Shown here: piece by piece, positions 14,831-49,512 of the stretch | How positions within the stretch are numbered: position 1 is the stretch's first letter | Layout of the letters: each line of letters starts with the position of its first letter | Sequence record: PX969468.1 | DNA from: a phage | Length of the DNA stretch: 64,000 bases | Reading direction: 5' to 3' (one strand) | Made by a program: the position numbers and the translations under genes | Notes under the pieces: model-generated | What the model was told of the DNA's origin: nothing | The model's input: only the letters and a program-made list of their open reading frames with translations | Databases searched by the model: none

Positions 14831-15142
14831 TTATTTAGCAATCACTAGGGAATACTTACGATTGTTAGAAGCATCACAGCTCAATGATTGCCAGTCTACC
14901 ACATACCACGTATCATTGTCAACAATTACTTTATCGCCTGTTCTGTAGCAGGTACTGCTTTCAATAATCCGAGACTCGATAAAGAATCTGTGTCGGCGCT
15001 CACGTAGCAACGCTAAGTTGATTATATCACCACCACTGTCCTTGATCCACACATTCTTGGATCCTTTATTTGCCAAAATTGTCTCGCCGTTGTAGACAAA
15101 CAGGCAGTATATTTTATTCAGTCTCTCTTGTATTGTAGCCAT
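14831..15142 (-). CDS. hypothetical protein
   Basis: Track ORF; AGGAGA upstream; downstream of promoter 15173..15201. Confidence 0.5.
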   Translation of the reverse strand: MATIQERLNKIYCLFVYNGETILANKGSKNVWIKDSGGDIINLALLRERRHRFFIESRIIESSTCYRTGDKVIVDNDTWYVVDWQSLSCDASNNRKYSLVIAK

Positions 15143-15172
15143 ACTATCTCCTTCTACTTGTCTTGTCCGATA

Positions 15173-15201
15173 ATAATATCTAAAGCTTACCTGTTTGTCA
15201 A
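15173..15201 (-). promoter_or_regulatory. sigma70-like promoter (TTGACA-17-TATTAT)
   Basis: Consensus hexamers at 17-bp spacing on the minus strand upstream of CDS 14831..15142. Confidence 0.5.
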
Positions 15202-15245
15202 CAACTGTTTTAGATATTTAAGGGTGGAATAACCACCCTTCTATA

Positions 15246-16034
15246 TTACTCGGAAACAGGGGTCCAAATATGATTTGCACGATCCTCGATAAGATTGAGT
15301 GCAATCTGACGACCCAACCCGGAACGAACGACATCATCTGGACTATCAAAGCTGATCATTCCAACCTCAGGATCTGGATGGCGAGTAAAGAAATCCGTCA
15401 CCCATGCAAGGCCAGATTTACCAGGGATGTCACGTTGGCTATTATCACCCATAATTACAAGAGTGGCTTGATCAGAGATCCTTGTGATAATTGACAACAT
15501 TTCTTCAGGGTTAGTTTGCTGTGCCTCGTCAATCAGGACAAAGCATCGCTCATCGAAACTACGACCACGAATGCTTTCAACTTCACAAATCTCTATACGA
15601 CTGTTCTGACCGTCTCCCAGCATTGCGGCAAAAGCACCTTTGCCAACACGGCGACAAATCGTGTCCATCATGCTTCGAAGATAGGGCCACAGTTTCTGCA
15701 TTGCATTTCCAGGTTTAAATCCTGAAGTCTTTCCTGTCTGAACGTAAGGGCGTGCAACAATGATCTTATCAATCTCGTTCTTACGCAGAAGATCACCTGC
15801 ATATGCAGATGCCATGAACGTCTTACCGGATCCAAACACACCGTTTACAATGATAATCTTACGCGACCCTAGATAATCAAGATACTTTTGCTGCTTTTTA
15901 TTCATTGGTCGGAGAGCTGGAGCGGTGTGCTCTCGTTCGTCAGCAAATTTTTCAGCAGCCTTACGCAGGCGATCAGATTTGCGAGCCTCTCTAGCTTCAT
16001 CACGCATGCGTTTTGTTTCTTTAGCTCGACCCAT
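15246..16034 (-). CDS. phoH: PhoH-like ATPase
   Basis: Walker A GVFGSGKTFMA, Walker B VLIDEAQ, and overall PhoH-like sequence. Confidence 0.75.
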   Translation of the reverse strand: MGRAKETKRMRDEAREARKSDRLRKAAEKFADEREHTAPALRPMNKKQQKYLDYLGSRKIIIVNGVFGSGKTFMASAYAGDLLRKNEIDKIIVARPYVQTGKTSGFKPGNAMQKLWPYLRSMMDTICRRVGKGAFAAMLGDGQNSRIEICEVESIRGRSFDERCFVLIDEAQQTNPEEMLSIITRISDQATLVIMGDNSQRDIPGKSGLAWVTDFFTRHPDPEVGMISFDSPDDVVRSGLGRQIALNLIEDRANHIWTPVSE

Positions 16035-17254: not shown

Positions 17255-18415
17255 TTATTTATTAGCAAATTTCTTCAAATGTTCTTCTACTAGCTCGAAT
17301 ACCTCCGGTCTGTAGTAGAAGAACTCTCGACAGCCATCAAACTTCTCTGTGAAGTTGATTTTGTATTGGCTCAAGGCTTGGTGCATAGCTTTTTCTAAAG
17401 TTTGCATGTCGTCTGTTGTTCCTTCCCAAGTTTTTATAACATGTAGATCAGAGAATCTAGCACCAGCTTTTTTAGCTCTTTTTAACACATCTTTTCTTCG
17501 TTCATCTACCCGGACACTCACACCAATTTTCATCATAGTTGGTACTTCCAGATCGTCAACCATGATATAAAGGCTACCATGTTCATGAGATAAGAAGCCG
17601 ACTTTAGCACATTTTTGACAGCCAGCTTTTTGGTTGATGTGGACAAACGGTTTTTGTGTGAACTCCCCGTGAATCGGACAGATGATAGTGACCTCTGTCT
17701 CCCTATTAACATATTCCACCCCGGAATAATCGTATTTATCTTTATGGATAGCTCTGGCTCTTGCCTCAAACCTTTTAGCCACCTCAGATGCTTTCTTTCT
17801 CTGCGTCTTCCTACTAACCTCGGCCACCTTCTTCTTCCCGCACTCGGGGCAACCTTTTCCACTTGGTGCATGGTCATGAGGTCTTTGTGGGAAGTGAGCA
17901 CCACATGTATTACAGATTATCTCCACTTTATCATTACCGGTTTTATAATTTACAAGAGAGTAATCATACTTATCGCCATGAAGCGCTTTTGCCTCAGCGA
18001 TCCACTCTTCAGTAGTCTTTCTCTCAGTTCCTCCACACTTACGGCAACCCCCCTCGCGGAGATGGTTATCAGGCTTTTGCTCAAACTCGCCGTGAACAGG
18101 ACAAACAATCACAACTTTAGTTTTAGCATTTACATACTCTACCTTAGAGTAATCATATTTATAATTATACTTAGCCTCGGCCTCCGCTTTAAATTTTTCA
18201 GCAGAAGCCGCTCTTTCTGCTTCAATCTGACATTTTGGGCAACCCTGTTTTTTACGGAGGTGATCTCCAAGAGTTTTCTTAAATTCTCCATGCTCAGGGC
18301 ATATAATTACAACCTTGGTGTGTGCACCCACATATTTGACTTTGGAATAATCATATTTATCACCATGAACTGCTTTCGCCCCCTCTATAAAATCTTCGGT
18401 TGTAAGTTTTCTCAC
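17255..18415 (-). CDS. repeat protein: four tandem ~60-aa zinc-ribbon-like modules plus C-terminal T5orf172/GIY-YIG-like domain (possible mobile endonuclease-like protein)
   Basis: Four repeats of YDYSKV.YV...TKVVIICPxHGEF...HL...GCxKC; C-terminus LYIM...MKIGVS...R...DLHVIK...REFF. Family assignment is from memory. Confidence 0.45.
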   Translation of the reverse strand: MRKLTTEDFIEGAKAVHGDKYDYSKVKYVGAHTKVVIICPEHGEFKKTLGDHLRKKQGCPKCQIEAERAASAEKFKAEAEAKYNYKYDYSKVEYVNAKTKVVIVCPVHGEFEQKPDNHLREGGCRKCGGTERKTTEEWIAEAKALHGDKYDYSLVNYKTGNDKVEIICNTCGAHFPQRPHDHAPSGKGCPECGKKKVAEVSRKTQRKKASEVAKRFEARARAIHKDKYDYSGVEYVNRETEVTIICPIHGEFTQKPFVHINQKAGCQKCAKVGFLSHEHGSLYIMVDDLEVPTMMKIGVSVRVDERRKDVLKRAKKAGARFSDLHVIKTWEGTTDDMQTLEKAMHQALSQYKINFTEKFDGCREFFYYRPEVFELVEEHLKKFANK

Positions 18416-18481: not shown

Positions 18482-19744
18482 TCAGCAACCACAACTTCCG
18501 TAGTGCTTAACTCGCTCGATAACTTCCGCTTGCTTACCTTTATTGTAAGGACGGGAGTTAGGACTGGAAAGGTATCCAGATACACGCCTGATCACACTGA
18601 TCGTACCTTCCTCATGGTTTCCACAACAAGGGCATATAAAACCTCTTGGAGAGGCTTTAAATTCTCCCTGGAAACCGCACTTGAAGCATTGGTCAACAGG
18701 CTGGTTTATACCGAAGTACATAATGTGTTTATACCCGAAGTCAACAAGAGCCTCTAAAGCATCCAGGTTGTTTTTCAGGTTAGGTGTTTCTACGTATCCG
18801 ATGTTGCCACCAGAGGAGATCATAGCAAAACCTTCCTCATACTCCCACTTATCAAAAGGAGAGCTATTTATCCATACTGGCTGATGGAAACTGTTGGTGA
18901 GATATTCATGCTCGTGCTTCAACACTTCCGGATATTCACGATCCAGACAGGTTGCAGCTTTATAGCATAGACTCTCAGAAGGAGTGCCGTACAAGCTAAA
19001 TGCTAGTCTACTTTCCTTCTTGTATCGCTCACAAGCATCTCTCATGTGCTGAAGGATTTCAAGAGCTAAAGCCTTGTCACCCTCTCTACCCAAAATCTGA
19101 CAGGTTTCATACACACCGATATACCCAATACTGATGGAAGCGTACCCGTCATAGAAGAGTTTATCAATACTCTCTTCAGGATCCAGGCGAGCAAGAGCGC
19201 CTTCACACCACATGATGGGGTTCTGCCCTGCCTTTGTTCCTTTTAGACGATTAACCCTTACAAGGTGAGCCTCGTATGCAAGATCCAAGTATTCGTCAAG
19301 AACTGCAAAGAAATCAACACCTTCCGTCTTGGCTTTTGCCGCAATCATTGGCAGGTTAAGGCTAACAACACCTAAGTTAAATCTACCAAGGTATTTCTCC
19401 TCGCCTGTTTCCAAGTCATTGTATTTGCTAAGAAAACTCCGGCAACCCATGCTCGTTACTTTGCCATCTGTCGAGCCTGTCACTTTTCTATTTAGTGGTA
19501 CAGATACGAAGTCAGGGTAGATACGTTCTGCACAGCATTCCAGAGCTAATCGTTTCAAATCATAGTTAGGATCCCCAGGGTTCATGTTGACACCCTCTTC
19601 CAGGAAGAACAGCACTTTAGGGAACACAGGTGTGATACGTTCTTCACCAAGACCCATTTTGTGGACTTTCAAGTAGTTTTTGGTAATCATTCTACCAAAG
19701 ACCGAGGTATCCAGTCCTAAACTTAATGTGATGAATGGAGTCTG
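18482..19744 (-). CDS. nrdD: anaerobic ribonucleoside-triphosphate reductase, exon 2
   Basis: In-frame extension upstream of the track ATG reads QTPFITLSLGLDTSVFGRM..., continuing T4 NrdD-like sequence; glycyl-radical motif RVSGYL and CxxC pairs at the C-terminus. Confidence 0.7.
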   Translation of the reverse strand, partial: QTPFITLSLGLDTSVFGRMITKNYLKVHKMGLGEERITPVFPKVLFFLEEGVNMNPGDPNYDLKRLALECCAERIYPDFVSVPLNRKVTGSTDGKVTSMGCRSFLSKYNDLETGEEKYLGRFNLGVVSLNLPMIAAKAKTEGVDFFAVLDEYLDLAYEAHLVRVNRLKGTKAGQNPIMWCEGALARLDPEESIDKLFYDGYASISIGYIGVYETCQILGREGDKALALEILQHMRDACERYKKESRLAFSLYGTPSESLCYKAATCLDREYPEVLKHEHEYLTNSFHQPVWINSSPFDKWEYEEGFAMISSGGNIGYVETPNLKNNLDALEALVDFGYKHIMYFGINQPVDQCFKCGFQGEFKASPRGFICPCCGNHEEGTISVIRRVSGYLSSPNSRPYNKGKQAEVIERVKHYGSCGC

Positions 19745-20541
19745 CTGTCTCCTCTCTGTGTTTCCACAGGGCCAGACTATCTCTTACTCTACTTCAATAA
19801 GATAATAACCCTTTATTGTGAGATGCTTACCTTCGGCATTTCCTTCGATAGCCCTATGAACGTTACCTACGTTCAAATTTAAGGCTTTTGCACAGGCATA
19901 AAGTGAAGGATATTCACCCACCAAGGTTTTCCCTTTATATGCCTGCACTTTCCTATAGCACTTACCTGGACAAAGTCCTGTTCGGAAAGCATGTCTCTTA
20001 TTATCTTCCGGCAAAACCCACTCTAGGTTAGACGGATGATCATTCAATGTATTGCCATCTTTATGATTCACTTCCCAGTTTTCAGGATCTTCTGGGACAT
20101 CTGGCAAACAATACAAGGCAACAATCCTTGAGGTTTGGATTCGAATCTTTTTACCTTTGTGGTTGAAAGAGTACATATAACGGCGTTTAACATGCTTGTT
20201 ACCTTTTCCATAACCTCCCCACAATATTGGGTGTAGCATTCCACGTTTTCCGTATACGTTTCCAACCTCATCAATCACATAGTTTGATTCTTCACCATTA
20301 AGAATGATCTTTTTCATAGAGCCTCTCCATTTCGAAGTTAGTATTTCAACTAACCCCTACACTACTTGGTTCAGAAATGTTTGTCAAGCATCTCTGCCTT
20401 TCGTTAGTCGTTACAACCGTTCCAACTCCTGTAAGAACTAGTCACGGGATTGGCATAGCTTTCGCCTTAGCGTTCCCCGTTAGCCGGATTTACCGACCCC
20501 TCTTATGAGGTTAGGAGAGTTTTACAACGGCCAGTTTGTTA
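19745..20541 (-). mobile_element. putative group I intron interrupting nrdD (about 797 nt) carrying an HNH endonuclease ORF
   Basis: Exon 1 ends ...TSVNG on a U; exon 2 resumes at QTPF after a G; the interval holds 224 nt non-coding, an HNH ORF, and 39 nt. T4 nrdD is known to carry a group I intron. Confidence 0.65.
19784..20317 (-). CDS. HNH homing endonuclease (intron-encoded)
   Basis: HNH motif VNHKDGNTLNDHPSNLEWVLPEDNKRHA. Confidence 0.65.
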   Translation of the reverse strand: MKKIILNGEESNYVIDEVGNVYGKRGMLHPILWGGYGKGNKHVKRRYMYSFNHKGKKIRIQTSRIVALYCLPDVPEDPENWEVNHKDGNTLNDHPSNLEWVLPEDNKRHAFRTGLCPGKCYRKVQAYKGKTLVGEYPSLYACAKALNLNVGNVHRAIEGNAEGKHLTIKGYYLIEVE

Positions 20542-21402
20542 ACCGTTGACAGAAGTTAACGTATTGATTTGGTAGAGCAAAGTCTGCATACTATCAAACA
20601 CGTCTTTATCTGTCATTTGCATTGCAACAGTCTCAGCATCTGGCAACCAATGTTCCTGACAAAATTTAAGGTTCTTCTCGTAGGTTGCTTCAGCATACTG
20701 TGCCAGATAATGATCAATATGGCTCATGGTCTGACCACCATATTGAGCACTAGCTACTGCACTAGAGATTTGGCTAAGGATTGTTGTTGCAACCCCTATT
20801 GACTTCGGCTTACTGACATGGGCGTTGCCAATGTTGAATCCGTTTTCCAGCATATCCGGATAATTTACCAAACAACAGTTTGTTAACGGACTGATCAGGT
20901 AGTCAAGATCATGCACATGGATGAAGCCTTTGTTGTGCTCTTCGGAGACACGGTCTGGCAGGATCTGTGTTGATGCAAGATGTTTGCTAAGGATGCCTGC
21001 AAGCAGGTCACGATGAGTATGAACATGATTAGTAGGCTTATTTGCGTTTTCTTTTGTAAATTCATCACAAGTTCGATCCAAGAAGCCACTAATATCTGCA
21101 AGCAGTTTTCCACCTGCCTCTCTGTTATTATCTCTTGTCTGTCTGTACTGGATGTATTCTCTGGCTGCACATTTTAAACCCATATCCATAAGAGCATCTT
21201 CAACAAGGATATGGATATTTTTTACAGAGATCGTGCACTGATCGGTTGGTAGATTGTTAGCAACAACTTCATTAACCGCACAGGCGATCCGGTAAGCTTC
21301 TTCTTCAGTATGTCCAGACTCAAGTAAGGCGGACTCTGCCGCCTTGATCACCTTAATTCCGTTATAGAACTCTTCTCTACCGTCCCGTTTTACAACTTTC
21401 AC
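20542..21402 (-). CDS. nrdD: anaerobic ribonucleoside-triphosphate reductase, exon 1
   Basis: ATP-cone N-terminus (KVVKRDGREEFYNGIKVIKA); ...KGFIHVHDLDY...GFNIGNAHVSKPKSIGVATTI... matches T4 NrdD from memory; ends at an in-frame stop inside the intron. Confidence 0.7.
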
Positions 21403-32485: not shown

Positions 32486-33621
32486 ATTGCTCCAACATTT
32501 CTAAGAACATTAACAAGTTTTGTTTGATCATTGAATGTTCGCTTCATATACAAACAGTCAAAAATTATACTCATCCATTGACCTACGGAAATTCTGCGAT
32601 CAATACCATTGAAGTCAGTATACTTAACAACACCTTTCGGGAACCACTTCTTGTACTGATCAATAATAGCCACCCACATCTCCTTTGGAGTGCTGCACTG
32701 AGACAGTAGGTAGAATGCTGAGGCATCCCCGAACTTACCCTTACCGATAAGTCCTTGATACGGCTTGATATTGTCAGCAGAGTCACCACACAGCATTTGG
32801 TATCCGAAGAACAGCATCCCGTAACCACCAACCTCTCCATTAGGCTTCATGAAGATGTTCCCCATACCGTTATCGATCAGCATAGGGGTTTCCCTTACAA
32901 AATCTCCCTTATCGTTTCGCATGGGATCGAACACAAGCCCCGGTAGTGTTCTTTGGTCCTTATCAATAGAGATAATAAACTTGTTGAACTTACCTGTTTT
33001 TTGGTAGTGGTTCCAACCTTCAAATTGCTGGATAGCTAACCAGTCGTCAGCCTCGATACCGTTGATCACTTGAGCATTATACTGCTTTTGGAGATACTGT
33101 CTTGCATCTCCAAGCAGCAGTGGTCGAAGAGTATTGTTACGGTTGGCTTTATATCTTTCCGGCATGGGAAGATCTAGTCTGAAATTACCTGTGCCTCCAA
33201 GTACCCCTACGCACCGATCTTCCGGAATACCGAGATAATTAAGGACTGCATTAGCTTTACACTTAATTGTGTGCAAGCAGTTCTCTACAGGATCAGGGGT
33301 TTGGATATCCAAGACATCGAAATCTTCTCGTGTCCACGGAATAAACTCCTTGCCAGCCTTTTTACATGCAGCTTCACGGTTGGTATTCTCAGCTTTTAAC
33401 CAACCACCAACGGTGTTCTTCTGCCGCCCCCAGAACTCTGTTCGTGTTTTAAACATCTTCTTACGTCCGGAGGCTTTGTGTGTTACCTCAATTGTCCTTT
33501 TTTCACAACTTGCTGCAGCTTGATATGCAACCTGATCGAAGTCATAATAAACTATAGCGTCAGGTTCAAGAAGATCAGCCAGACAATCTATGGACTCAAT
33601 AAGTGGATATTCTCTACTCAA
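32482..33621 (-). CDS. 5'-3' exonuclease / flap endonuclease (RNase H-like)
   Basis: GIEADDWLAIQQ matches the GxEADD motif of 5' nucleases. Confidence 0.6.
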   Translation of the reverse strand: MSREYPLIESIDCLADLLEPDAIVYYDFDQVAYQAAASCEKRTIEVTHKASGRKKMFKTRTEFWGRQKNTVGGWLKAENTNREAACKKAGKEFIPWTREDFDVLDIQTPDPVENCLHTIKCKANAVLNYLGIPEDRCVGVLGGTGNFRLDLPMPERYKANRNNTLRPLLLGDARQYLQKQYNAQVINGIEADDWLAIQQFEGWNHYQKTGKFNKFIISIDKDQRTLPGLVFDPMRNDKGDFVRETPMLIDNGMGNIFMKPNGEVGGYGMLFFGYQMLCGDSADNIKPYQGLIGKGKFGDASAFYLLSQCSTPKEMWVAIIDQYKKWFPKGVVKYTDFNGIDRRISVGQWMSIIFDCLYMKRTFNDQTKLVNVLRNVGAI

Positions 33622-33922
33622 AGACCCTCCTGTTAGTTATTCTGCAAGATGGTTGGATGCTGTAATGGAATGCATCATCACTCTCTGCAATAAGTGACTC
33701 AACATCCCAATACTTTTCAAAAAGGAACGGATTAGACCCCCAGTGGTGGGTTATTTTCATCAAGGAGTCTGGTATCATATAACCACAGATCTTAATTACA
33801 TCGCCAGGTTGAATTGTGTTTTCATGAAGGTTGCTTGCCTTCTTCAGAATCATACCTTTATGATTCTCGTTTGCATACAACTGGACAATATCTTTATCTT
33901 CAACAATAAAAATTTTAAGCAT
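33614..33922 (-). CDS. hypothetical protein
   Basis: Track ORF. Confidence 0.45.
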   Translation of the reverse strand: MLKIFIVEDKDIVQLYANENHKGMILKKASNLHENTIQPGDVIKICGYMIPDSLMKITHHWGSNPFLFEKYWDVESLIAESDDAFHYSIQPSCRITNRRVFE

Positions 33923-33981
33923 ATCTAGTTCTCCTAGTTTATAGATATCTGACCGATAATATCAGATTAATAACACTTTTG

Positions 33982-34275
33982 TCAAGACTTTTTAGTCTTT
34001 CTTGGAGAGCTTTTTGTTGATCTTTTCCTTTTGTGGTAGATTCCAAGTGCAGCGTTTTCTTGGGCGCACGTTTTAACAGTTCTCAGACAAGAACTTTCAG
34101 CTTTAGGCAGGTTTAACTCCCACCAACCAAGCCAGTAAAGTTCTGATTCAGACAACTGCTCAGATTCAGCCTTCCGATACAAGGCTTGCATACCTCTGAT
34201 GATATCGTCCAGAGGTGTATCGAATACAAAAGCTGTCTTATCGAATTTCTCTTTTACAGGTCTCTTAGCCATCAA
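33982..34275 (-). CDS. hypothetical protein (basic C-terminus)
   Basis: Track ORF. Confidence 0.45.
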   Translation of the reverse strand: MMAKRPVKEKFDKTAFVFDTPLDDIIRGMQALYRKAESEQLSESELYWLGWWELNLPKAESSCLRTVKTCAQENAALGIYHKRKRSTKSSPRKTKKS

Positions 34276-34729
34276 GGTAACCCTCTATCCACGAAAAGTC
34301 AGTCTTCCATTCTGGAACTTTACTAAGCTCACGCCACTCTGCAAAGCAGTCTCTGTAATACGCCTCTGCCATACCTTTGGTGATCTTATTCACCTTAGCC
34401 AACTGATTAACTGCCTGAGCATACTTTCCACGGATATTTGCTAACCCAGGATGCACCGATGTGTGACAATCTGGGCACAACGCTATCAGTCCGACAAGCC
34501 GGATCACTCCATCTTCGAAAGTGTAAAGTTCATGACACTCCACTGGGTGTTTGCTGCCTTTACCGCCGCACACCTCACAGGTGTAGTTGGCTTCTCTATA
34601 GCACTTCTTGCGGATCTTATCCCACTCACTCTTCTTTACAGCGTTTCGGAGGTTATTATACCAAGCTGTTTCTGGGATCAGTTGCACAATAAGCCTGCGT
34701 TCAGACTTCATTAAACGTCCGTCTTCCAC
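34265..34729 (-). CDS. HNH-like zinc-finger nuclease family protein
   Basis: CEVCGG...HPVECHELY...LCPDCH pattern. Confidence 0.4.
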   Translation of the reverse strand: MEDGRLMKSERRLIVQLIPETAWYNNLRNAVKKSEWDKIRKKCYREANYTCEVCGGKGSKHPVECHELYTFEDGVIRLVGLIALCPDCHTSVHPGLANIRGKYAQAVNQLAKVNKITKGMAEAYYRDCFAEWRELSKVPEWKTDFSWIEGYLDG

Positions 34730-34738
34730 GTATTCTCC

Positions 34739-34945
34739 TCATTCAAAGAAATGGGTGCGAGGACAAGATCCAGCCTCGCCTTGTTTCACAAGCTCGTAGA
34801 GCTCACCTTGACTTGTCTCATAAAGGCAAATACGTTTACCATTGTCCCGGTATACATCGACAAGATACGCTGTTTCACCTGCAAACACGACACCACAGGC
34901 CAGACATGCTGCCATGAACAAAATTGCCAACAGAAAATCTTTCAT
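34739..34945 (-). CDS. small secreted protein or lipoprotein (signal peptide)
   Basis: N-terminal hydrophobic signal (MKDFLLAILFMAACLACGVVFAG). Confidence 0.45.
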   Translation of the reverse strand: MKDFLLAILFMAACLACGVVFAGETAYLVDVYRDNGKRICLYETSQGELYELVKQGEAGSCPRTHFFE

Positions 34946-35008
34946 GGTTAAACCCTCCTAAACATTTTATGAGGTAACAATACCACGTCCGTGTGGTTAT
35001 GTCAATGA

Positions 35009-35770
35009 TCAATCCTTAACACAAGGTCTTGGATAGCCTCTGGATAACTTCCACTCAGTTAGTGACATCTCTCCGTAGAGACAGTTTACTTCCCAAGACT
35101 TTCTTGCACAAACTGCCTCCCACCACGGATTTAGCCACTTCCTGTCGTTGAAGCACCTTAAGTTTCTTCCTTTGTTATCTCGTGCCCTCCAACAGGTATC
35201 TTTCTTAGACCAATCAATACCGGGCAGGATATTATTCTTGTGCGGGTTTGGAACTATCTTTAAAGCCTCTTCCGGGTTGGCTATCGACCATTCAATCCTA
35301 GATTTAGCCTCTTCGAAAGTGTCAAAATCTCCCAACCTAACATTTACCCTATTTATCCTTCTACTTGCCCTCCACTTACCCTCTCTTTTCAGCCATACCA
35401 CACCAGTCACTGTAGAGGTATTATTGCTTTGTACATTTTCCAAGGCTCTCTTACAGTAGTTATCCCATGGCTTCAACATTTGAAGGTTTTCTATCTTGTC
35501 TACAGGCACTCCGTTAGTAGAATTTTTCTTAGATACGATATGATCGATATGCCAAGTATCTGTGACACATCCGTAAAACATGTCAAAAATTTCCCTATGT
35601 CTGCCACGTTTAACATTTGTCAGCTTATTGTACACTTGGAAATATCCAGTCTTTTTGTTGTAGTGTCCAGCCCTATTTCCATTCCTACTGTAGCCAGGTT
35701 TCCAAAAGATTAGATCACCATCCTTGTACCAATAAGGGTAATGATCATTAAAAAAGAAATGTATCTTCAT
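35009..35770 (-). CDS. free-standing HNH homing endonuclease with AP2-like DNA-binding domain
   Basis: HNH motif HIDHIVSKKNSTNGVPVDKIENLQML; AP2-like VTGVVWLKREGKWRASRRINRVNVRLGDFDTFEEA. Confidence 0.65.
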   Translation of the reverse strand: MKIHFFFNDHYPYWYKDGDLIFWKPGYSRNGNRAGHYNKKTGYFQVYNKLTNVKRGRHREIFDMFYGCVTDTWHIDHIVSKKNSTNGVPVDKIENLQMLKPWDNYCKRALENVQSNNTSTVTGVVWLKREGKWRASRRINRVNVRLGDFDTFEEAKSRIEWSIANPEEALKIVPNPHKNNILPGIDWSKKDTCWRARDNKGRNLRCFNDRKWLNPWWEAVCARKSWEVNCLYGEMSLTEWKLSRGYPRPCVKD

Positions 35771-35824
35771 ATCTCAACACACCTCTGGTGTAGAAAGGTA
35801 GGCGAGTGGCCTACCTTTTGATCA

Positions 35825-36322
35825 TTAATCCAGAACAACACCTCCAAACTCTACAAATTTCTTAAGCAACTTGTCAATGGTTTTTGGATTTTGGTCGTAC
35901 TGGTTGTATGGGAACGAAGCCCAAATATTTGAGGTCTTACGTATAGCAGATTTAATATGACCGTTATCTATGTCTTCAAGTGCTTTACGTTCCCTGATCA
36001 ACTGGATTGCCCACTTATCCTGGCTATCTGGTCCAAAATCCGGCAACTTAAGCTGTTTTTTGTAGTGTTCCCAGTATTTGACAAGAAATTGATATTTACC
36101 GCAGGCTGTAGTTCTTTGCCCTTTTGAGTTAAACACTTTACCAGGGCGACCGTTTGCAAAAGGGTGTGTAGAAAAATCTGTAAAGATTTCAGGTTTTCCG
36201 TCCATCCCGTATGCTACAACATCGTATCCTCCACATTTGGTGGCAGGGTGGGTTGTTGTTCCCTCTGCCCAGCCAATAAGATCCAAGAAAGCTTTTCGTT
36301 GAATATTTTTATCAAGTTTCAT
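35825..36322 (-). CDS. endolysin, lambda R-like lytic transglycosylase
   Basis: NIQRKAFLDLIGWAEGT... aligns by eye with lambda R (NNQRKAFLDMLAWSEGT), including the catalytic Glu context; 165 aa. Confidence 0.8.
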   Translation of the reverse strand: MKLDKNIQRKAFLDLIGWAEGTTTHPATKCGGYDVVAYGMDGKPEIFTDFSTHPFANGRPGKVFNSKGQRTTACGKYQFLVKYWEHYKKQLKLPDFGPDSQDKWAIQLIRERKALEDIDNGHIKSAIRKTSNIWASFPYNQYDQNPKTIDKLLKKFVEFGGVVLD

Positions 36323-36464
36323 TTTTCATACTCTCCAGTTCACTCATAACGAGCCCCGATCAGCACCACTGTGTGGTGTGGCTAGGTTGCCCAGTTCATA
36401 CATCAGGGCATATGTAGGTGCAAATTGAAAACACTTATTCAATTGGCTACTAAACATACCTAAA

Positions 36465-37748
36465 TTATTCCAGCACCTCCCAAGTGTCTGGGTTAACATT
36501 TCGGACGCAGATACCGACAGGGAATTGGTAGTTATTGTCTTCTGTCCTTGCTTGATATTTGAAGGTGACAAACTTGCCGATCATTTCCTGCATTCTGTCA
36601 TAGCTACGCTCCTCGTGCGTACCTTTCATCTTCATTTTAACAACAATACCTTCCTTGTCAACACAGATAAGAACACCTTCATCATTCTTATCTTTCTCAA
36701 CGTCAATAACTTTCACCTCTGCGTCGTTGAACTTTTTCCATTTCAATGCTTCAGATGTTCGCTGACCGTACTCGTATTTACCGCAGAAATTACGCATGAT
36801 AGTACCTTCATATCCTTCGGACATGAATATACCAACAGATTCTTCGCAATGATCAACTGTGTACGCAAGCTCTGCGTCAACAACCTTGATATGGTCAAGC
36901 ATCAGAGTGGTAACGGTATCCTCTGCATCCATAAGATCCTTGCAGCGTCCAGACTCTGTTTCTGGATCCCACCACACCTTGTCGCTAGGAATATCAAAAA
37001 TGTGATACTCCAGATCGTAGCTACAGTACCCACCGTAACGCAAATCATCACGAACAGGCTCAACATCGACAGGAATATCTACCTTGTTGAAGTTTTTGTA
37101 TGTTGATAAGCCTGCCTTAATTGCGGCATGACGGCGTTTTTTATCTGCCTCATAGTCTTTATCGATCTCGGCCTGAATCTCTTCCTGTGTGCGCCACCGT
37201 TTAGCAAGAGACACTATTTTCTGCAAAGGAAGACCATGAATGTATAGTTCCCCATCAAGTTGTTTAATCCCAGTGGTAGAATGGAAAGAACGAAGTTGCT
37301 CTAAAAGCTTTCCTTGAATAGGGTAGGACTTATTACCACGGGAAATAAATTTAGGCTCACCGTTTTGGAAAACAACTAGTAGACGAAGGCCATCTAACTT
37401 ACGCAAGATCCAGCAAGGTAATTTAAGTGCCTTTCCACGCTTCAGGTAGTCATGCACCAGCATGGGTAAAAGGTCAACACCCTGCTCGCAATCTTCCATA
37501 TTTTCAACATACCCCAGACGGACTTGTTTTTCCCACTTACTGATCGCTTCCAGCTCAGCCTGTTGCTCAGCTGTAGTTTCATTGGCACGACCCACGTTCT
37601 TAGGTGTGCAGATCGTCTCTTTGTATTGCAGTTTACCATCAAGCTTGCCAAACTCTACGATAACCTTATCACCATCCGTGAATACTTTCCACTGTTGGTA
37701 GCTGCCATCTTTATTCAGTGCGTACAGTGTTGTTTTGATTTGATGCAT
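36465..37748 (-). CDS. ATP-dependent DNA ligase
   Basis: Nucleotidyltransferase motifs KLDGLR (I), DGELY (III), EGYEGTIMR (IV), LKWKK (V). Confidence 0.65.
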   Translation of the reverse strand: MHQIKTTLYALNKDGSYQQWKVFTDGDKVIVEFGKLDGKLQYKETICTPKNVGRANETTAEQQAELEAISKWEKQVRLGYVENMEDCEQGVDLLPMLVHDYLKRGKALKLPCWILRKLDGLRLLVVFQNGEPKFISRGNKSYPIQGKLLEQLRSFHSTTGIKQLDGELYIHGLPLQKIVSLAKRWRTQEEIQAEIDKDYEADKKRRHAAIKAGLSTYKNFNKVDIPVDVEPVRDDLRYGGYCSYDLEYHIFDIPSDKVWWDPETESGRCKDLMDAEDTVTTLMLDHIKVVDAELAYTVDHCEESVGIFMSEGYEGTIMRNFCGKYEYGQRTSEALKWKKFNDAEVKVIDVEKDKNDEGVLICVDKEGIVVKMKMKGTHEERSYDRMQEMIGKFVTFKYQARTEDNNYQFPVGICVRNVNPDTWEVLE

Positions 37749-38017
37749 TACTCGGCCTCTTCCTTAAAAATTTTAAACATCTCTTCTTTACTCATTACCA
37801 ACCAGTCTCCCATAAAGTCAACTAACCAATCTCCCTGGTACAAGACTAGGTTACCAAACGGCTCTACAAGCTCACACATGCGACGAAGATCTCTGGTCCG
37901 AACAGGTGACGATGTAAACACACCTGTATCAATCCACCGTTGCAGATCAGATACTGATGAAGAGCTTCCGTCAAACTGGTGTGCTTCTACAGGTTTAGCA
38001 AGATTAAATAACGGCAT
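37748..38017 (-). CDS. hypothetical protein
   Basis: Track ORF. Confidence 0.45.
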   Translation of the reverse strand: MPLFNLAKPVEAHQFDGSSSSVSDLQRWIDTGVFTSSPVRTRDLRRMCELVEPFGNLVLYQGDWLVDFMGDWLVMSKEEMFKIFKEEAE

Positions 38018-45166: not shown

Positions 45167-45241
45167 GCCCTGTTAGCTTAGTGGATAAAGCAGCGGCCTT
45201 CTAAGCCGTTGACACTGGTTCGAGTCCAGTACGGGGTGCCA
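45167..45241 (+). tRNA. tRNA-Arg (anticodon TCT)
   Basis: Cloverleaf folded by eye: 7-bp acceptor stem, D-arm GCTT/AAGC, anticodon loop CTTCTAA, T-arm ACTGG-TTCGAGT-CCAGT, encoded CCA. Confidence 0.75.
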
Positions 45242-45245
45242 AATT

Positions 45246-45332
45246 GGGGAGTTATCCCGTAGAGGTAGCGGTGTAGACTGTAAATCTATTGTCATTGCGA
45301 CTCGGGTGGTTCGACTCCACCACTCCCCACCA
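45246..45332 (+). tRNA. tRNA-Tyr (anticodon GTA), type II with long variable arm
   Basis: Acceptor GGGGAGT/ACTCCCC, anticodon loop CTGTAAA, T-arm GGTGG-TTCGACT-CCACC, CCA. Confidence 0.75.
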
Positions 45333-45446
45333 AATTTATATTTTTAAATGCATAAATCATACAGATAATGACATTGATATTTATCGTCGTTTATACTAGT
45401 CACTAACTGCTCGAAAATCAGTGTCATTATCAGTGTAATTTATAAA

Positions 45447-45537
45447 GGAGGGTAGGGAGCAATGGTGCTCAAGCGGTCTTGAAAACCGTCCCGTTGAGGA
45501 TGACTCGATGATGGTTCGATTCCATTACTCTCCGCCA
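45447..45537 (+). tRNA. tRNA-Ser (anticodon TGA), type II
   Basis: Acceptor GGAGGGT/ACTCTCC, anticodon loop CTTGAAA, long variable arm, T-loop TTCGATT, CCA. Confidence 0.65.
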
Positions 45538-45635
45538 CATTGTTGACCTTGTAATTAAGCGAAAGCCGGAAGCAGAACCGGATTATCAAATGTTACAGTC
45601 GTCATCGCCGACTAGCCACATGGTCAACATATTGC

Positions 45636-45734
45636 GCTAGGTAAGCCCTTTGGCAAGGGCGAGGATTTTTAATCCTGAAAATAGACGAGGTAGTCGTTGA
45701 ATACATAGGTGGTTCGATTCCATCACCTAGCACC
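45636..45734 (+). tRNA. atypical tRNA-like gene (about 99 nt; Lys TTT-like anticodon loop; about 29-nt extra region); possible pseudogene
   Basis: Perfect 7-bp acceptor (GCTAGGT/ACCTAGC), D-arm, T-arm GGTGG-TTCGATT-CCATC, anticodon loop TTTTTAA with a 4-bp stem; insertion too long for a canonical type I tRNA; no full CCA. Confidence 0.35.
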
Positions 45735-45738
45735 TTTT

Positions 45739-45814
45739 GCTGATGTAGCACAATTGGCAGTGCAATTGATTTGTAATCAATAGGTTGCAGGTTCAAGTCC
45801 TGCCATCAGCACCA
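45739..45814 (+). tRNA. tRNA-Thr (anticodon TGT)
   Basis: Acceptor GCTGATG/CATCAGC, D-arm GCAC/GTGC, anticodon stem ATTGA/TCAAT, loop TTTGTAA, T-arm GCAGG-TTCAAGT-CCTGC, CCA. Confidence 0.8.
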
Positions 45815-45815
45815 T

Positions 45816-45890
45816 GGCCCTGTAGCTGGAAGGTTCAAGCAAGCGACTCATAATCGCCAGACGGTGGTTCAATTCCACCCAGGGCCACCA
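45816..45890 (+). tRNA. tRNA-Met or Ile2 (anticodon CAT)
   Basis: Acceptor GGCCCTG/CAGGGCC, anticodon loop CTCATAA, T-arm GGTGG-TTCAATT-CCACC, CCA; G1-C72 argues against initiator. Confidence 0.7.
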
Positions 45891-45901
45891 AATAATAAAT
45901 A

Positions 45902-45978
45902 CTCCGCGTAGCTCAGCTTGGTAGAGCGCCTGATTTGGGATCAGGAGGTCGAGTGTTCGAATCACTCCGTGGAGACCA
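45902..45978 (+). tRNA. tRNA-Pro (anticodon TGG)
   Basis: C1-G72 acceptor, D-arm GCTCAGCTTGGTAGAGC, anticodon stem CCTGA/TCAGG, loop TTTGGGA, T-arm GAGTG-TTCGAAT-CACTC, CCA. Confidence 0.8.
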
Positions 45979-46798: not shown

Positions 46799-47082
46799 GA
46801 GTTACTGCACTGGTTGTTTTGTGCTTGTTATTGTGTGGGTGTGCAACCAGCGTTGAGAGAGAATACAAGATTGACCCTCCGGATGTAGGAAGGTTGATTG
46901 TTAAACCTCCCGAGGGTGCTATGAAACCACCTGCTAAAGCTATCCCTTTGAAGAAAGGTGCGCCAGATGCGGTGAATTCTGGCATTATGAGGGATAATAA
47001 CCTGTCTTGTAGTAATGATAGAGCTAAATTGATCATTTTGCAAGACTATATAAGAACACTGTTTCCAAAGGAGAGAGGTTAA
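46795..47082 (+). CDS. o-spanin (Rz1-like) outer-membrane lipoprotein
   Basis: Signal peptide with lipobox-like LLCGC, proline-rich mature region; start overlaps the i-spanin stop (separate architecture). Confidence 0.6.
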   Translation: MRVTALVVLCLLLCGCATSVEREYKIDPPDVGRLIVKPPEGAMKPPAKAIPLKKGAPDAVNSGIMRDNNLSCSNDRAKLIILQDYIRTLFPKERG

Positions 47083-47507
47083 TGTCTAAGATTTACGGAC
47101 CGTGTTCTGAAAAGCAGAAGATGATCCTAGAGAACGATGCAGATATTTTGGTGATCGGAGGTGCAGCTGGGTCTGGAAAGTCGTTCCTCTTGCAGCTAAT
47201 GCCACTTAAAATTATTGATGACCCACACAGCTCTGTGGTTATGTTCCGAAGAACAACTCCACAGTTGGAAGGTGAGGGTGGGCTATGGCCTAAAGCAGTA
47301 GCTATTTACAGTGATCTGCCTGAAAACATTAAACCAAAGTTCAGAGAGAAGGATCATAAGTTTATTTTTCCACGGTTTGATCCGAGCACTGGCAAGTGGG
47401 ACAGGAGCAAAAAAGGGGCCGTTGTAAAATACTGCCACATGGAGTATGTCCAAGATAAGCTTAACCATCAAGGCCTTGAGTACACCATGGTTTGCTTCGA
47501 TGAGGGT
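47082..47507 (+). CDS. terminase large subunit, exon 1 (ATPase N-terminal part)
   Basis: Walker A GGAAGSGKS, Walker B-like MVCFDEG; reading frame stops right after the Walker B region. Confidence 0.65.
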
Positions 47508-47557
47508 TAATTTGTAGCTCTCGTAAAACCTCCCTAATTGCGGGGAAATCTTTATTA

Positions 47558-47586
47558 TTGACACCACCAACCTGTTATGGTAACAT
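47558..47586 (+). promoter_or_regulatory. sigma70-like promoter inside the intron (TTGACA-17-TAACAT)
   Basis: Hexamers at 17-bp spacing about 140 nt upstream of the endonuclease ORF. Confidence 0.4.
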
Positions 47587-47725
47587 GATAGAGGCTTCGA
47601 AGAGAGATCGAAGGTATGGTAACAGTGTGTTGATTTAGATAATCCGCAGCGAAGCATCCGAGAGGATGAACGTTCAACGACTAGTCGAAAGACGTAGAAT
47701 CAAGCGATTCGAAACGGGAGGGTGA

Positions 47726-48316
47726 ATGTGTAATACTAAAAAATGTATGGATTGCCAAAGAGTTCTACCTCTTGATGATTTCTTTTTATCATCTAAGAGC
47801 CAGGATGGATACTCAGGTACATGCAAGGAATGCTATATGTACTACAGGAAGAATGGATCTCGTAGAAACAAAAATATGGTTAAGAGAGATGATGCAGCAT
47901 CTTTTATTCAAGACTTACTGAAGAAAGGTGAGCTTTTTGAATGTAAATCTTGTCATGAAAGTATGCTTGCTGATAGTTTTTACACAAAACGCGACTATGG
48001 TAAAGTGTATCTAGTCACGAACAGGTGTAAGATGTGTGAAAAGTTTTATCAGATTGAGAAGAAATTTCACATAACAAAAGATGAATACTATCGTCTACTC
48101 TCAGATCAAGATCATAAGTGTGCAATCTGTAGAATATCTCTTGATGAGTATAAGACTCAAGGATATAGAGATTTCTTTTGTGTTGATCATGACCATAAAA
48201 CTGGTGCTGTAAGAGGGTTGCTTTGTGATAAATGCAACAGGGCTTTAGGTTTCTTCCAAGAGGATGAGGAAACCATTCTTAGAGCGGCAGAGTATTTACA
48301 CATTCATAAGATATAG
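47726..48316 (+). CDS. endonuclease VII-like / HNH-family zinc-finger homing endonuclease (intron-encoded)
   Basis: CVDHDHKTGAVRGLLCDKCNRALGF matches the EndoVII core; several upstream CxxC pairs. Confidence 0.6.
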   Translation: MCNTKKCMDCQRVLPLDDFFLSSKSQDGYSGTCKECYMYYRKNGSRRNKNMVKRDDAASFIQDLLKKGELFECKSCHESMLADSFYTKRDYGKVYLVTNRCKMCEKFYQIEKKFHITKDEYYRLLSDQDHKCAICRISLDEYKTQGYRDFFCVDHDHKTGAVRGLLCDKCNRALGFFQEDEETILRAAEYLHIHKI

Positions 48317-48390
48317 TCTGGTCTGCATGGAGACATGCAGCTGCCTGAAAATGGCGGGGCAAGACTAGCGACCTTGCCCGAACATAAACG

Positions 48391-49512
48391 ACGCAATTCG
48401 AATGGGAGCAGATAGACTATTTGATGTCTCGTCTGCGATCTCAGTCAAAGTATCCATCAAGAATGGTTATCAGCTGTAACCCCGACTCAGAACACATGCT
48501 TGCCAAACTGGTTAGGTGGTGGTTGGACGATGAAGGGTATCCAGATCCGGAGAAATGCGGTAAGAAAAGATATTTTATCCGACGCGACGGGGAATTTATC
48601 TGGGGAGATTCTAAAGAAGAGTTGATAGAGAAATACACCACGGTTAACGGACTTGGCGTAGAGATCAAGCCAAGACCGTTGTCATTCTCGTTCATAGGCG
48701 CAACAATATTCGATAATCCTGTCTGTTTGAGAGACAACCCAGAATACCTTGCTTTCCTCGAAGGTCTACCAGAGCTGGAAAAAGCTCAGCTTCTCCATGG
48801 TAACTGGTTTGCAAAGCCTGAGGGTGCAAACTATTTTCAAAGATCTTTCCTTCGTGATGCCGATAGAGTACCTCTTGGGTCAGTATCTTGCAGGGCATGG
48901 GATAAGGCAGGAACCGAGAGAACTTCCGGTAATAAATTTCCTGACTTTACTGCCAGTATTAAGGTAAGTAAAGATAGCGACGGATTTTATTACCTGTCCG
49001 GTGATTATTGTCCTGAGAACGTGGATGACGGGAGGTATTCCACAGGTCTGGAAGGCAAGTTCTGTAAAAAGGCTGGTGAACGAGATGTGATCATCAGGAA
49101 ACAGGCGCAGTTCGATGGTGATGATTGCATAATCGTCTTCTCTGTGGACCCAGGGCAGGCAGGTAAGAGTGAGTTCTTAACCTCCTCCAGATCCTTGCTT
49201 GCCGAAGGGTTCAGGGTTGAAGAAGACCCAATGCCTTCCAACAAGTCTAAACTGACAAGGTTCTCACCTTTTGCCAATCTTGCCCAACAAGGAATGGTGA
49301 GGATTGTAAAATCCAGTTTCCATCCTGATACTCTGGAAGCATTTCTGACTGAACTTGAAAAATTCAACGGGGAAAGATCAACATTTAACAGAAAAGACGA
49401 CTGGGCCGACTGCGTAGCTTCTGCGATTAATTTCCTGGAGAAAGAGGAGGTAGCACTTCCTTGTGTGATTCCATCAATCTCATCACCTTCTATGTTCAAG
49501 CGTTTTATCTAA
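48391..49512 (+). CDS. terminase large subunit, exon 2 (ATPase motif C plus nuclease domain)
   Basis: In-frame region upstream of the track start reads TQFEWEQIDYLMSRLRS...; ISCNPD coupling motif; nuclease Asp contexts RAWDKAGT, IVFSVDPGQ, DDWADCVASA. Confidence 0.65.
   Translation, partial: TQFEWEQIDYLMSRLRSQSKYPSRMVISCNPDSEHMLAKLVRWWLDDEGYPDPEKCGKKRYFIRRDGEFIWGDSKEELIEKYTTVNGLGVEIKPRPLSFSFIGATIFDNPVCLRDNPEYLAFLEGLPELEKAQLLHGNWFAKPEGANYFQRSFLRDADRVPLGSVSCRAWDKAGTERTSGNKFPDFTASIKVSKDSDGFYYLSGDYCPENVDDGRYSTGLEGKFCKKAGERDVIIRKQAQFDGDDCIIVFSVDPGQAGKSEFLTSSRSLLAEGFRVEEDPMPSNKSKLTRFSPFANLAQQGMVRIVKSSFHPDTLEAFLTELEKFNGERSTFNRKDDWADCVASAINFLEKEEVALPCVIPSISSPSMFKRFI

Follow-up and report, generated by a model that had tools for sequence, protein, structure and literature searches.

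The phage DNA analysed here (sequence record PX969468.1; "the window" denotes the whole stretch of 64,000 nucleotides) carries beside its endolysin gene a free-standing gene for a homing endonuclease of the HNH-AP2 type, at positions 35009..35770 on the minus strand. The gene is an intact ATG-to-TGA open reading frame (ORF) of 253 amino acids (aa), co-oriented with its neighbours. The window belongs to an rV5-like myophage of E. coli, genus Vequintavirus. Comparison with related phages makes it probable that the product is an active homing endonuclease that cuts or nicks in or near the endolysin gene of endonuclease-free relatives (the A type), and that the gene was copied in together with a divergent, presumably immune endolysin. 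An earlier sequence-only reading of the window had proposed a free-standing HNH-AP2 homing endonuclease inserted beside the endolysin, and the profile, fold and comparative evidence bears this out. GenBank already calls the gene a putative HNH or homing endonuclease, and it is a known kind of selfish phage gene. A literature search found no paper dealing with this endolysin-endonuclease locus.

The ORF lies between the endolysin gene (35825..36322, minus strand) and a gene of 68 aa (34739..34945, minus strand). A search of Rfam over positions 34700-36500 gave zero matches at E<=1, so that no intron RNA was seen around the endonuclease gene. Since the genes on either side are both complete and no Rfam match was found, we conclude that the endonuclease gene is free-standing, that is, a separate ORF between genes and not part of an intron or intein.

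The protein was assigned to its family mainly through its homologues. By itself it matched Pfam AP2 with 22.5 bits (E 1.4e-4, aa 121-156; gathering score 33.3) and Pfam HNH (PF01844) with 14.9 bits (E 0.03, aa 71-99; gathering threshold 21.4), while HNH_3 (PF13392) gave no match at E<=0.1; a comparison with NCBIfam remained empty for both the endonuclease and the endolysin. The sequence-only reading was to be given up if HNH and AP2 profiles failed to match; matches do exist, on Pfam alone only just. A match to PHROG_99 'HNH endonuclease' was found at E 2.5e-20. An exhaustive phmmer search against 1.84 billion representatives yielded 1240 homologues, most of them of about 160 aa and aligning over residues 13-156. 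When 54 aligned homologues were examined with Pfam, 50 matched HNH_3 and 44 matched AP2 at E<=0.001. H77 and N95 are invariant in this alignment, and H58, R59, D76 and N104, as well as G18, G42 and Y43, are nearly so. The window protein keeps all of the nuclease-motif residues (H58, R59, D76, H77, N95, L96 and N104) and all of the AP2 signature (G123, V124, W133, A135, G147, F149 and A155). The profile of the alignment retrieved I-HmuI (PDB 1U3E, E 5e-11), with profile positions 22-108 aligned to residues 18-110 of the structure, and the plant AP2/ERF structures WRI1, TEM1 and ERF096 (E 2e-9). A single-sequence search of the PDB returned only glutathione transferases at E of about 0.7, which are chance matches; the family profile was required.

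The AlphaFold model, computed from 60 sequences with a mean predicted local distance difference test score (pLDDT) of 81.9, begins with a module rich in beta strands, continues with the HNH core and then has two units in a row, each made of three strands and a helix. The N-terminal module (aa 1-56, 35603..35770; this and the following domains are encoded on the minus strand) is aligned with the N-terminal part of I-HmuI and has modelled strands at residues 5-7, 13-16, 19-22, 36-38, 43-48 and 53-56. By analogy with I-HmuI, it is presumed to contact DNA. The catalytic core of the His-Me finger type (HNH_3/I-HmuI type; aa 53-111, 35438..35614) was assigned from the alignment and from the HNH_3 matches of the homologues. 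It runs in the order strand-helix-strand-strand-helix in the model and combines a beta-beta-alpha metal finger with the catalytic His and the Asn/Asn or His positions expected of HNH enzymes. A clade-specific loop, SKKNSTNGVPVDK, is inserted inside this core and is the likely cause of the weak Pfam HNH score. The first AP2 DNA-binding domain (aa 121-164, 35279..35410) shows a three-stranded antiparallel sheet on one helix and the pattern G-V...W.A...LG.F..EEA. A second, degenerate AP2-like domain (aa 183-231, 35078..35224) was recognised from the model and from alignment with the second AP2 repeat of homologues with two AP2 domains. Its modelled strands lie at residues 185-188, 193-197 and 203-207 and its long helix at residues 215-231; it has no Pfam match of its own. 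The conserved C-terminal motif WWEAVCARKSWE follows it. The second AP2-like unit and this motif are extras without counterpart in the majority of about 160 aa.

The distribution of the gene was analysed among about 120 related GenBank records, in which some phages are entered twice. Four types of the locus were distinguished. Type B, the cassette of the window, was found in 20 records, with 96-100% protein identity of the endonuclease. In type A, the empty type, of about 80 records, the endolysin is followed directly by the downstream promoter and there is no such gene. Presence and absence in related phages, the check proposed with the sequence-only reading, thus divides 20 records with the gene from about 80 without it. 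Type C comprises 11 records, including FV3 and rV5 derivatives. It has a different HNH-AP2 gene, of 227 aa and 35% identical, whose product matches Pfam HNH_3 with 52.5 bits; this gene occupies the same spot as that of type B, overlapping the endolysin stop, and the last ~130 nt of the type C endolysin are recoded to D-like sequence. Type D comprises four records (VB-EcoM-WM, YP-6, HMD-6 and EduardKellenberger) and has a third HNH-AP2 gene, of 238 aa and 29% identical, upstream of a fourth endolysin allele. The type D endonuclease shares the MINFFFND... N-terminus and the WWDAVC.RKS C-terminal motif. Among the named phages, DrSchubert is of type B, Mangalyan, FFH2, AlexBoehm and MaxBurger are of type A, and RudolfGeigy is of type C. 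The endolysin locus is thus a hot spot at which three different HNH-AP2 genes have settled.

What is present or absent is larger than the endonuclease gene. A heterologous block of 1266 bp (35015..36280), delimited by blastn breakpoints, has no blastn similarity to endonuclease-free relatives, which have about 424 bp there. The breakpoints lie at 35014/36281 against Mangalyan and at 35009/36281 against rV5_ev168; from the former, the block holds the endonuclease gene, a 54-nt spacer and nearly all of the endolysin gene. The flanking anchors are 1295 nt apart in each of the ten B-type loci aligned, and both junctions are identical in these ten carriers. The mobile unit is the whole 1.27-kb block including the swapped endolysin allele, not the endonuclease gene alone.

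The endolysin of the block is of the lambda-R/GH104 type (PHROG_90, E 4e-51). Its 165-aa B allele has 50% protein identity to the common A allele (156 aa) and about 57% to lysozymes of P2-like prophages. The B gene is a mosaic: its first 42 nt are resident A sequence, its core is foreign, and its last six codons or so (GGVVLD-stop; ~20 nt) resemble resident alleles. More generally, the endolysin is pieced together from A-, B- and D-like segments, evidence of recombination within the gene. The endonuclease never occurs without the B endolysin in the phage records; the two were found in the same 20 records, in which the endolysin is at least 99% identical.

On the right lies the ATP-dependent DNA ligase gene (36465..37748, minus strand), and the left homology arm, outside the mobile block, is the 68-aa gene. 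At the left junction (34977..35014, minus strand), the endonuclease gene ends in GATTGA with its stop and is continued by TCATTGACAT. The latter is the -35 element of a conserved promoter of the sigma-70-like kind (TTGACA-17-TATTGT, with a TG upstream) for the 68-aa gene. In empty genomes the endolysin likewise ends in GAT TGA TCATTGACAT. An imperfect copy, GATTAATGATCA, is located 3' of the B endolysin stop at about 35815-35829, so that a short imperfect repeat brackets the spacer and the endonuclease gene.

The spacer itself (35771..35824, minus strand) extends from the endolysin stop to the endonuclease start. It contains a 10-bp hairpin (35794..35818) and a GAGGTG Shine-Dalgarno sequence (35780..35785) 9 nt 5' of the endonuclease ATG; in a second stem, codons 2-5 are predicted to pair with the Shine-Dalgarno region. 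The RNA fold with both stems has a predicted energy of -24.6 kcal/mol (z -3.2). Four sites of the spacer vary among the ten aligned copies, and the hairpin sequence is unchanged in nine of them; in 241Ecol014PP, a G to T change at 35803 breaks the stem-closing pair. We considered whether the hairpin after the endolysin stop is a terminator and did not accept it, the T run being too short; a scan for intrinsic terminators found none at the locus. In T4-type phages, sequestration of the ribosome-binding site limits the expression of endonucleases. The stems predicted here may regulate the endonuclease in a similar manner. A promoter-like site is present at 35848..35877, and the endonuclease might be transcribed either from it or by read-through of the endolysin transcript across the hairpin.

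A word-indexed protein search gave four close clusters, namely the window's own (98% identical) and three from metagenomes (70-79%). In all three metagenomic clusters, the endonuclease gene lies directly 3' of a B-type endolysin (75-80% identical) where the contig reaches upstream, and its start overlaps the endolysin stop as ATGA. These pairs occur in two different gene neighbourhoods. A small membrane-type gene is found 3' of the pair in each of three metagenomic contigs, of which only contig L005 has a confirmed homologue of the 68-aa gene (66% identical). From the linkage of the two genes in the metagenomes we conclude that they have long formed a unit, which came into Vequintavirus from a relative not yet sampled. 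On entry, the pair gained resident-type endolysin ends and the 54-nt spacer with its own ribosome-binding site. A source in P2-like prophages, suggested by the endolysin identity mentioned above, was dropped, since a relative of the metagenomic Vequintavirinae-like phages, whose endolysins are 75-80% identical and which have the pair already linked, is the nearer source. As a side observation, nrdD lies immediately 3' of the pair in most contigs of the metagenomic lineage with P0157/P0003 (L030-L036). It is there divided into at least three ORFs, broken by an HNH_3 gene and other inserts; in L036 it is a single ORF of 388 aa. A load of endonuclease genes seems to be typical of these phages in general.

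In three independent cases, an HNH-AP2 gene linked to an endolysin was found in a decayed state. JEP1 (L041, 1077..1367) retains an in-frame type D remnant without aa 21-162, the result of a 426-nt deletion between 9-nt repeats. In V18 (L040, 3547..4869), only the last 30 codons of a D-type endonuclease are left, fused to the ligase. Metagenomic contig L038 (4493..4868), which has the gene neighbourhood of L005, carries an endonuclease gene with a frameshifting deletion of 422 nt and a 7-nt overlap. In JEP1 as in L038, the HNH domain and the first AP2 domain are lost through the internal deletion.

All ten aligned Vequintavirus copies of the endonuclease gene are intact. Their pairwise ratios of nonsynonymous to synonymous substitution rates (dN/dS) are 0.06-0.11, and those against or among the metagenomic relatives are 0.05-0.10 wherever dS is unsaturated. 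These values show purifying selection on the gene. The identity of the cassette among carriers is 97.5-100%, with 96-98% for the left flanks and 87-96% for the right flanks. The flanks of non-carriers are as near to those of the window as the flanks of carriers: Mangalyan is the closest on the left and JES2013 on the right. Neighbour-joining trees of both flanks show A, B and C phages mixed. The cassette is thus present or absent at a fixed site among close relatives, in a pattern incongruent with the phylogeny of its flanks.

Linkage was examined in 19 hand-picked genomes, with three informative single-nucleotide polymorphisms (SNPs) within 200 bp on the left and 17 on the right. The mean r2 between SNPs is 0.5-0.75 below 100 bp and about 0.1 beyond 400-800 bp. 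The r2 between the presence of the cassette and SNPs 25-200 bp away is 0.02-0.16. A co-conversion signature, that is, linkage between the cassette and flanking SNPs, was looked for in these 19 genomes and none was found. On these data, the edges of the block behave as recombination hot spots, and the block has been placed into many backgrounds.

If the enzyme is an active homing endonuclease, the spread of the block could be explained as follows. Upon co-infection with an endonuclease-free rV5-like phage, the enzyme would nick or cut the rival genome in or beside the A-type endolysin gene. The break would be resected into the conserved flanks. To the right, these are the first 42 nt of the endolysin gene and the ligase side; to the left, the flank is the promoter of the 68-aa gene. 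With the endonuclease-carrying genome as template, repair would then transfer the whole 1.27-kb block, including the endonuclease gene, the spacer and the divergent endolysin allele without the target. Such a process would be intronless homing with co-conversion, also known as marker exclusion. In favour of this explanation are the domain architecture with its intact catalytic residues, the variable presence of the block at fixed junctions, its strict association with the B endolysin, the purifying selection, the occurrence in several flank lineages, the low linkage to nearby SNPs and the decay of related endonuclease genes. We infer that the protein is an active nuclease, where its target lies, that the B allele is immune and that inheritance is super-Mendelian. 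Several points weigh against this explanation. The protein alone stays under the Pfam gathering thresholds for HNH and AP2, and HNH_3 and NCBIfam are silent. Because background recombination is high, with linkage disequilibrium (LD) decaying by 400-800 bp, the scatter of the cassette needs no nuclease by itself. Classical homing usually co-converts flanking markers, which raises and does not lower the linkage of adjacent SNPs. Since the endonuclease gene, intact or decayed, goes with a B-type endolysin in every lineage seen, its target could lie in B-type genomes free of the endonuclease and not in the A allele. Finally, I-HmuI-type enzymes are nickases, and a double-strand break can therefore not be assumed.

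Some of these points would also be expected if the endonuclease gene, intact as it is, were a passenger in a block that spreads by ordinary homologous recombination and is kept through selection on the B endolysin, for instance on certain hosts. The real target of the enzyme would then lie elsewhere, for example in B-type endonuclease-free genomes of the donor lineage, or there would be none left. Recombination so frequent that LD is gone by 400-800 bp, the linkage of the endonuclease to the B endolysin in 20 of 20 phage records, the same pairing in three metagenome gene contexts, the patchwork structure of the endolysin, and a flanking-SNP linkage that is not elevated, unlike that in classical co-conversion, are all consistent with such a passenger. 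However, the dN/dS of 0.05-0.11 among recent copies implies that the activity of the endonuclease is selected. It would also be hard to explain without nuclease-driven insertion how three different HNH-AP2 genes converged on one gene of 0.5 kb. Moreover, related endonuclease genes elsewhere decay by deletion, as expected once drive stops, whereas the ten copies here are intact. We therefore regard spread as a passenger as unlikely, although it deserves to be kept in mind beside homing.

Two further explanations give the protein a different main role. The enzyme may serve mainly as a weapon of interference, damaging competing rV5-like genomes with the A, C or D type of the locus, reducing their yield and excluding nearby markers. 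This explanation overlaps with homing. It would fit the I-HmuI-like fold and the occupation of the locus by endonuclease genes that exclude one another and that each go with an endolysin variant of their own. Goodrich-Blair and Shub reportedly described, in 1996, competing intron endonucleases of the Bacillus phages SPO1 and SP82 that interfere with the rival. In T4-type phages, free-standing endonucleases have been documented to cause marker exclusion (PMC2988022, PMC2790892). Sequence data, however, cannot separate interference from homing, since both arise from the same cut, and as the principal role interference seems improbable to us. It is also conceivable that the protein is a domesticated DNA-binding or nuclease protein with a role beneficial to the phage, such as transcription factor, degradation of host DNA or packaging, and not a selfish element. 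The strong purifying selection, the two AP2 domains, a fold found in transcription factors, and the position of the gene just upstream of a conserved promoter would agree with domestication. Yet about five-sixths of the close relatives live without the gene, the surrounding genes being the same, related endonuclease genes have been deleted in otherwise intact genomes or long contigs, and the catalytic His and Asn residues are kept. These facts make domestication very improbable.

A bolder extension of the homing explanation can be offered tentatively, as a possibility and not as our expectation. The endolysin gene may be a battleground of three rival HNH-AP2 endonucleases, each with a cleavage-immune endolysin variant and maybe cutting the alleles of the others. 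If so, endonuclease attack, and not host adaptation, would drive the replacement of an essential lysis gene and its diversification into mosaics, and the locus would represent a natural multi-allele gene drive acting on a cargo gene.

The locus was compared with known systems. Magnani et al. 2004 (PMC520932, as cited in PMC10448857) described homing endonucleases of the HNH-AP2 class from phages, cyanobacteria and ciliates. PMC10448857 reports homing endonuclease genes that mark the boundaries of exchanged segments, and it also reports HNH-AP2 endonucleases of phages. The window protein shares with the HNH-AP2 class, including the 'IPA-HNH' genes of vibriophage ICP1, an N-terminal HNH domain followed by one or more AP2 domains, an HNH domain too divergent for Pfam HNH_3 and recovered by profile methods, and the occurrence as free-standing genes at the edges of exchanged segments. 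The window clade differs from the bulk of the class (about 160 aa, one AP2), to which it is only 25-40% identical, in the HNH loop insertion, the second degenerate AP2 domain and the C-terminal WW[ED]AVC.RKS motif. In literature searches we found no member of this clade that was tested biochemically. I-HmuI is encoded in a group I intron and binds DNA through a C-terminal helix-turn-helix region. The window gene differs from that of I-HmuI (Bacillus phage SPO1, PDB 1U3E) in being free-standing and in its AP2 domains, and the two proteins have about 11% sequence identity in the structural alignment.

With SegF, SegG and MobE of T4-type phages, the window gene shares the position as a stand-alone gene between conserved genes, the presence or absence among relatives, and the divergent adjacent gene on the endonuclease-carrying genome. 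Sandegren and colleagues are said to have found, in 2005, alternative endonuclease genes at one locus in T4-related phages. The protein families differ: the Seg proteins are of the GIY-YIG family and MobE is an HNH enzyme without AP2, whereas the window protein is HNH-AP2. The extent of replacement differs as well. In contrast to the few polymorphisms of the T4-type cases, the neighbouring gene is here replaced by a 50%-identical allele save for its first 14 and last few codons. That flanking DNA is inherited along with T4-type endonuclease genes is stated in the abstract of PMC2790892. The 'HEG-islands' of Barth, Dunham and Seed 2023 (PMC10448857) likewise have endonuclease genes linked to cargo of core function and moving together with it. 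These islands have at least two flanking endonuclease genes and diffuse boundaries, whereas the window cassette has one endonuclease gene and sharp, fixed junctions; the HNH ORF at 34265..34729 lies outside the block, so that the cargo is not flanked by two or more such genes.

On the minus strand, the order of genes around the locus is ligase, endolysin, endonuclease, 68-aa gene, 154-aa HNH gene, two small ORFs and a 5'-exonuclease gene. The 68-aa gene encodes a predicted membrane protein (PHROG_4641, E 4e-28), which on inspection of its sequence is predicted to be lipoprotein-like. It is kept 3' of the endolysin or the endonuclease in all locus types, as in the metagenomic relative L005. Bases 33500-38000 matched 125 phage records at 90-99% identity. 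The closest record is 'Campylobacter phage C2' (99.1%), and the closest annotated one is Escherichia phage SophiaRose (98.1%). Twenty 'UNVERIFIED: Campylobacter phage' records in GenBank (MG0656xx; loci L011, L012, L015 and L025), with C. jejuni as stated host, are Vequintavirus genomes and 96-99% identical to the window. The host label of these records looks doubtful.

The sequence-only reading had also counted at least four homing-endonuclease-type genes in the window, taken as a sign of heavy endonuclease traffic. The count stands, and the wording is a fair description of the window. The 154-aa CxxC...CxxC HNH protein (34265..34729, minus strand; PHROG_5200, E 1e-72), which had been included as evidence of traffic, must however be set aside: its gene is syntenic throughout the relatives examined, regardless of the type of their endolysin locus, and is therefore a core gene. 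The protein weakly resembles the HNH region of IscB (NCBIfam E 2.8e-4, far under the cut-off). In V18, the annotated ORF at its position is much shorter, with 270 nt.

Two further endonuclease genes had been described as borne by introns, which is plausible. The terL gene (plus strand) is split into 47082..47510 and 48421..49512. An Intron_gpI match at 47498..48340 (48.3 bits, E 1.4e-10) falls just under the Rfam gathering score of 50 and was missed by the scan at the gathering threshold; an Endonuclease_7-type ORF (47726..48316) lies within it. The nrdD gene (minus strand) is split into 20539..21402 and 18482..19690, with an HNH_3 ORF (19784..20317) between them. Its Intron_gpI match is weak (28 bits, E 2.8e-4, 19754..20041) and overlaps the 3' end of the HNH_3 ORF. 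The interruption of nrdD could be either a splicing intron or a split gene. Just downstream of nrdD, on the same strand, there is a nuclease ORF of 386 aa (17255..18415) with DUF723, treble-clef zinc finger and T5orf172/MUG113 (GIY-YIG-like) domains; in SophiaRose, the annotation of its counterpart is GIY-YIG nuclease, and a 126-nt 'nrdD' fragment comes next.

The PhoH ORF (15246..16034) and an ORF of 103 aa (14831..15142), both on the minus strand, are about 100 nt apart in the window. In SophiaRose, a GIY-YIG nuclease gene of 930 nt lies between ORFs of matching lengths (795 and 312 nt). Positions 14831..16034 of the window are thus apparently the empty form of another endonuclease site. A tRNA cluster at 45167..45975 (plus strand) gave six matches, two of which are low-scoring, at 45636..45732 (97 nt, unusually long, 35.5 bits) and at 45248..45327 (29.9 bits). 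SophiaRose has an annotated 'tRNA-Stop(tta)' in the corresponding cluster.

The endolysin locus represents a clean natural system with five configurations: an empty one, three with HNH-AP2 genes on either side of the endolysin, and one with decayed remnants. Its junctions are sharp, and a given endonuclease is strictly accompanied by one particular allele of the endolysin. Since the BASEL collection has phages of each configuration that share one E. coli K-12 host, direct measurements would be possible of homing, of the co-conversion of an essential cargo gene and of competition between endonucleases. In cocktails for phage therapy, co-infecting rV5-like phages may exchange or exclude alleles of the lysis gene. 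What the locus would add to an ordinary selfish gene is a multi-endonuclease hot spot around an essential lysis gene.

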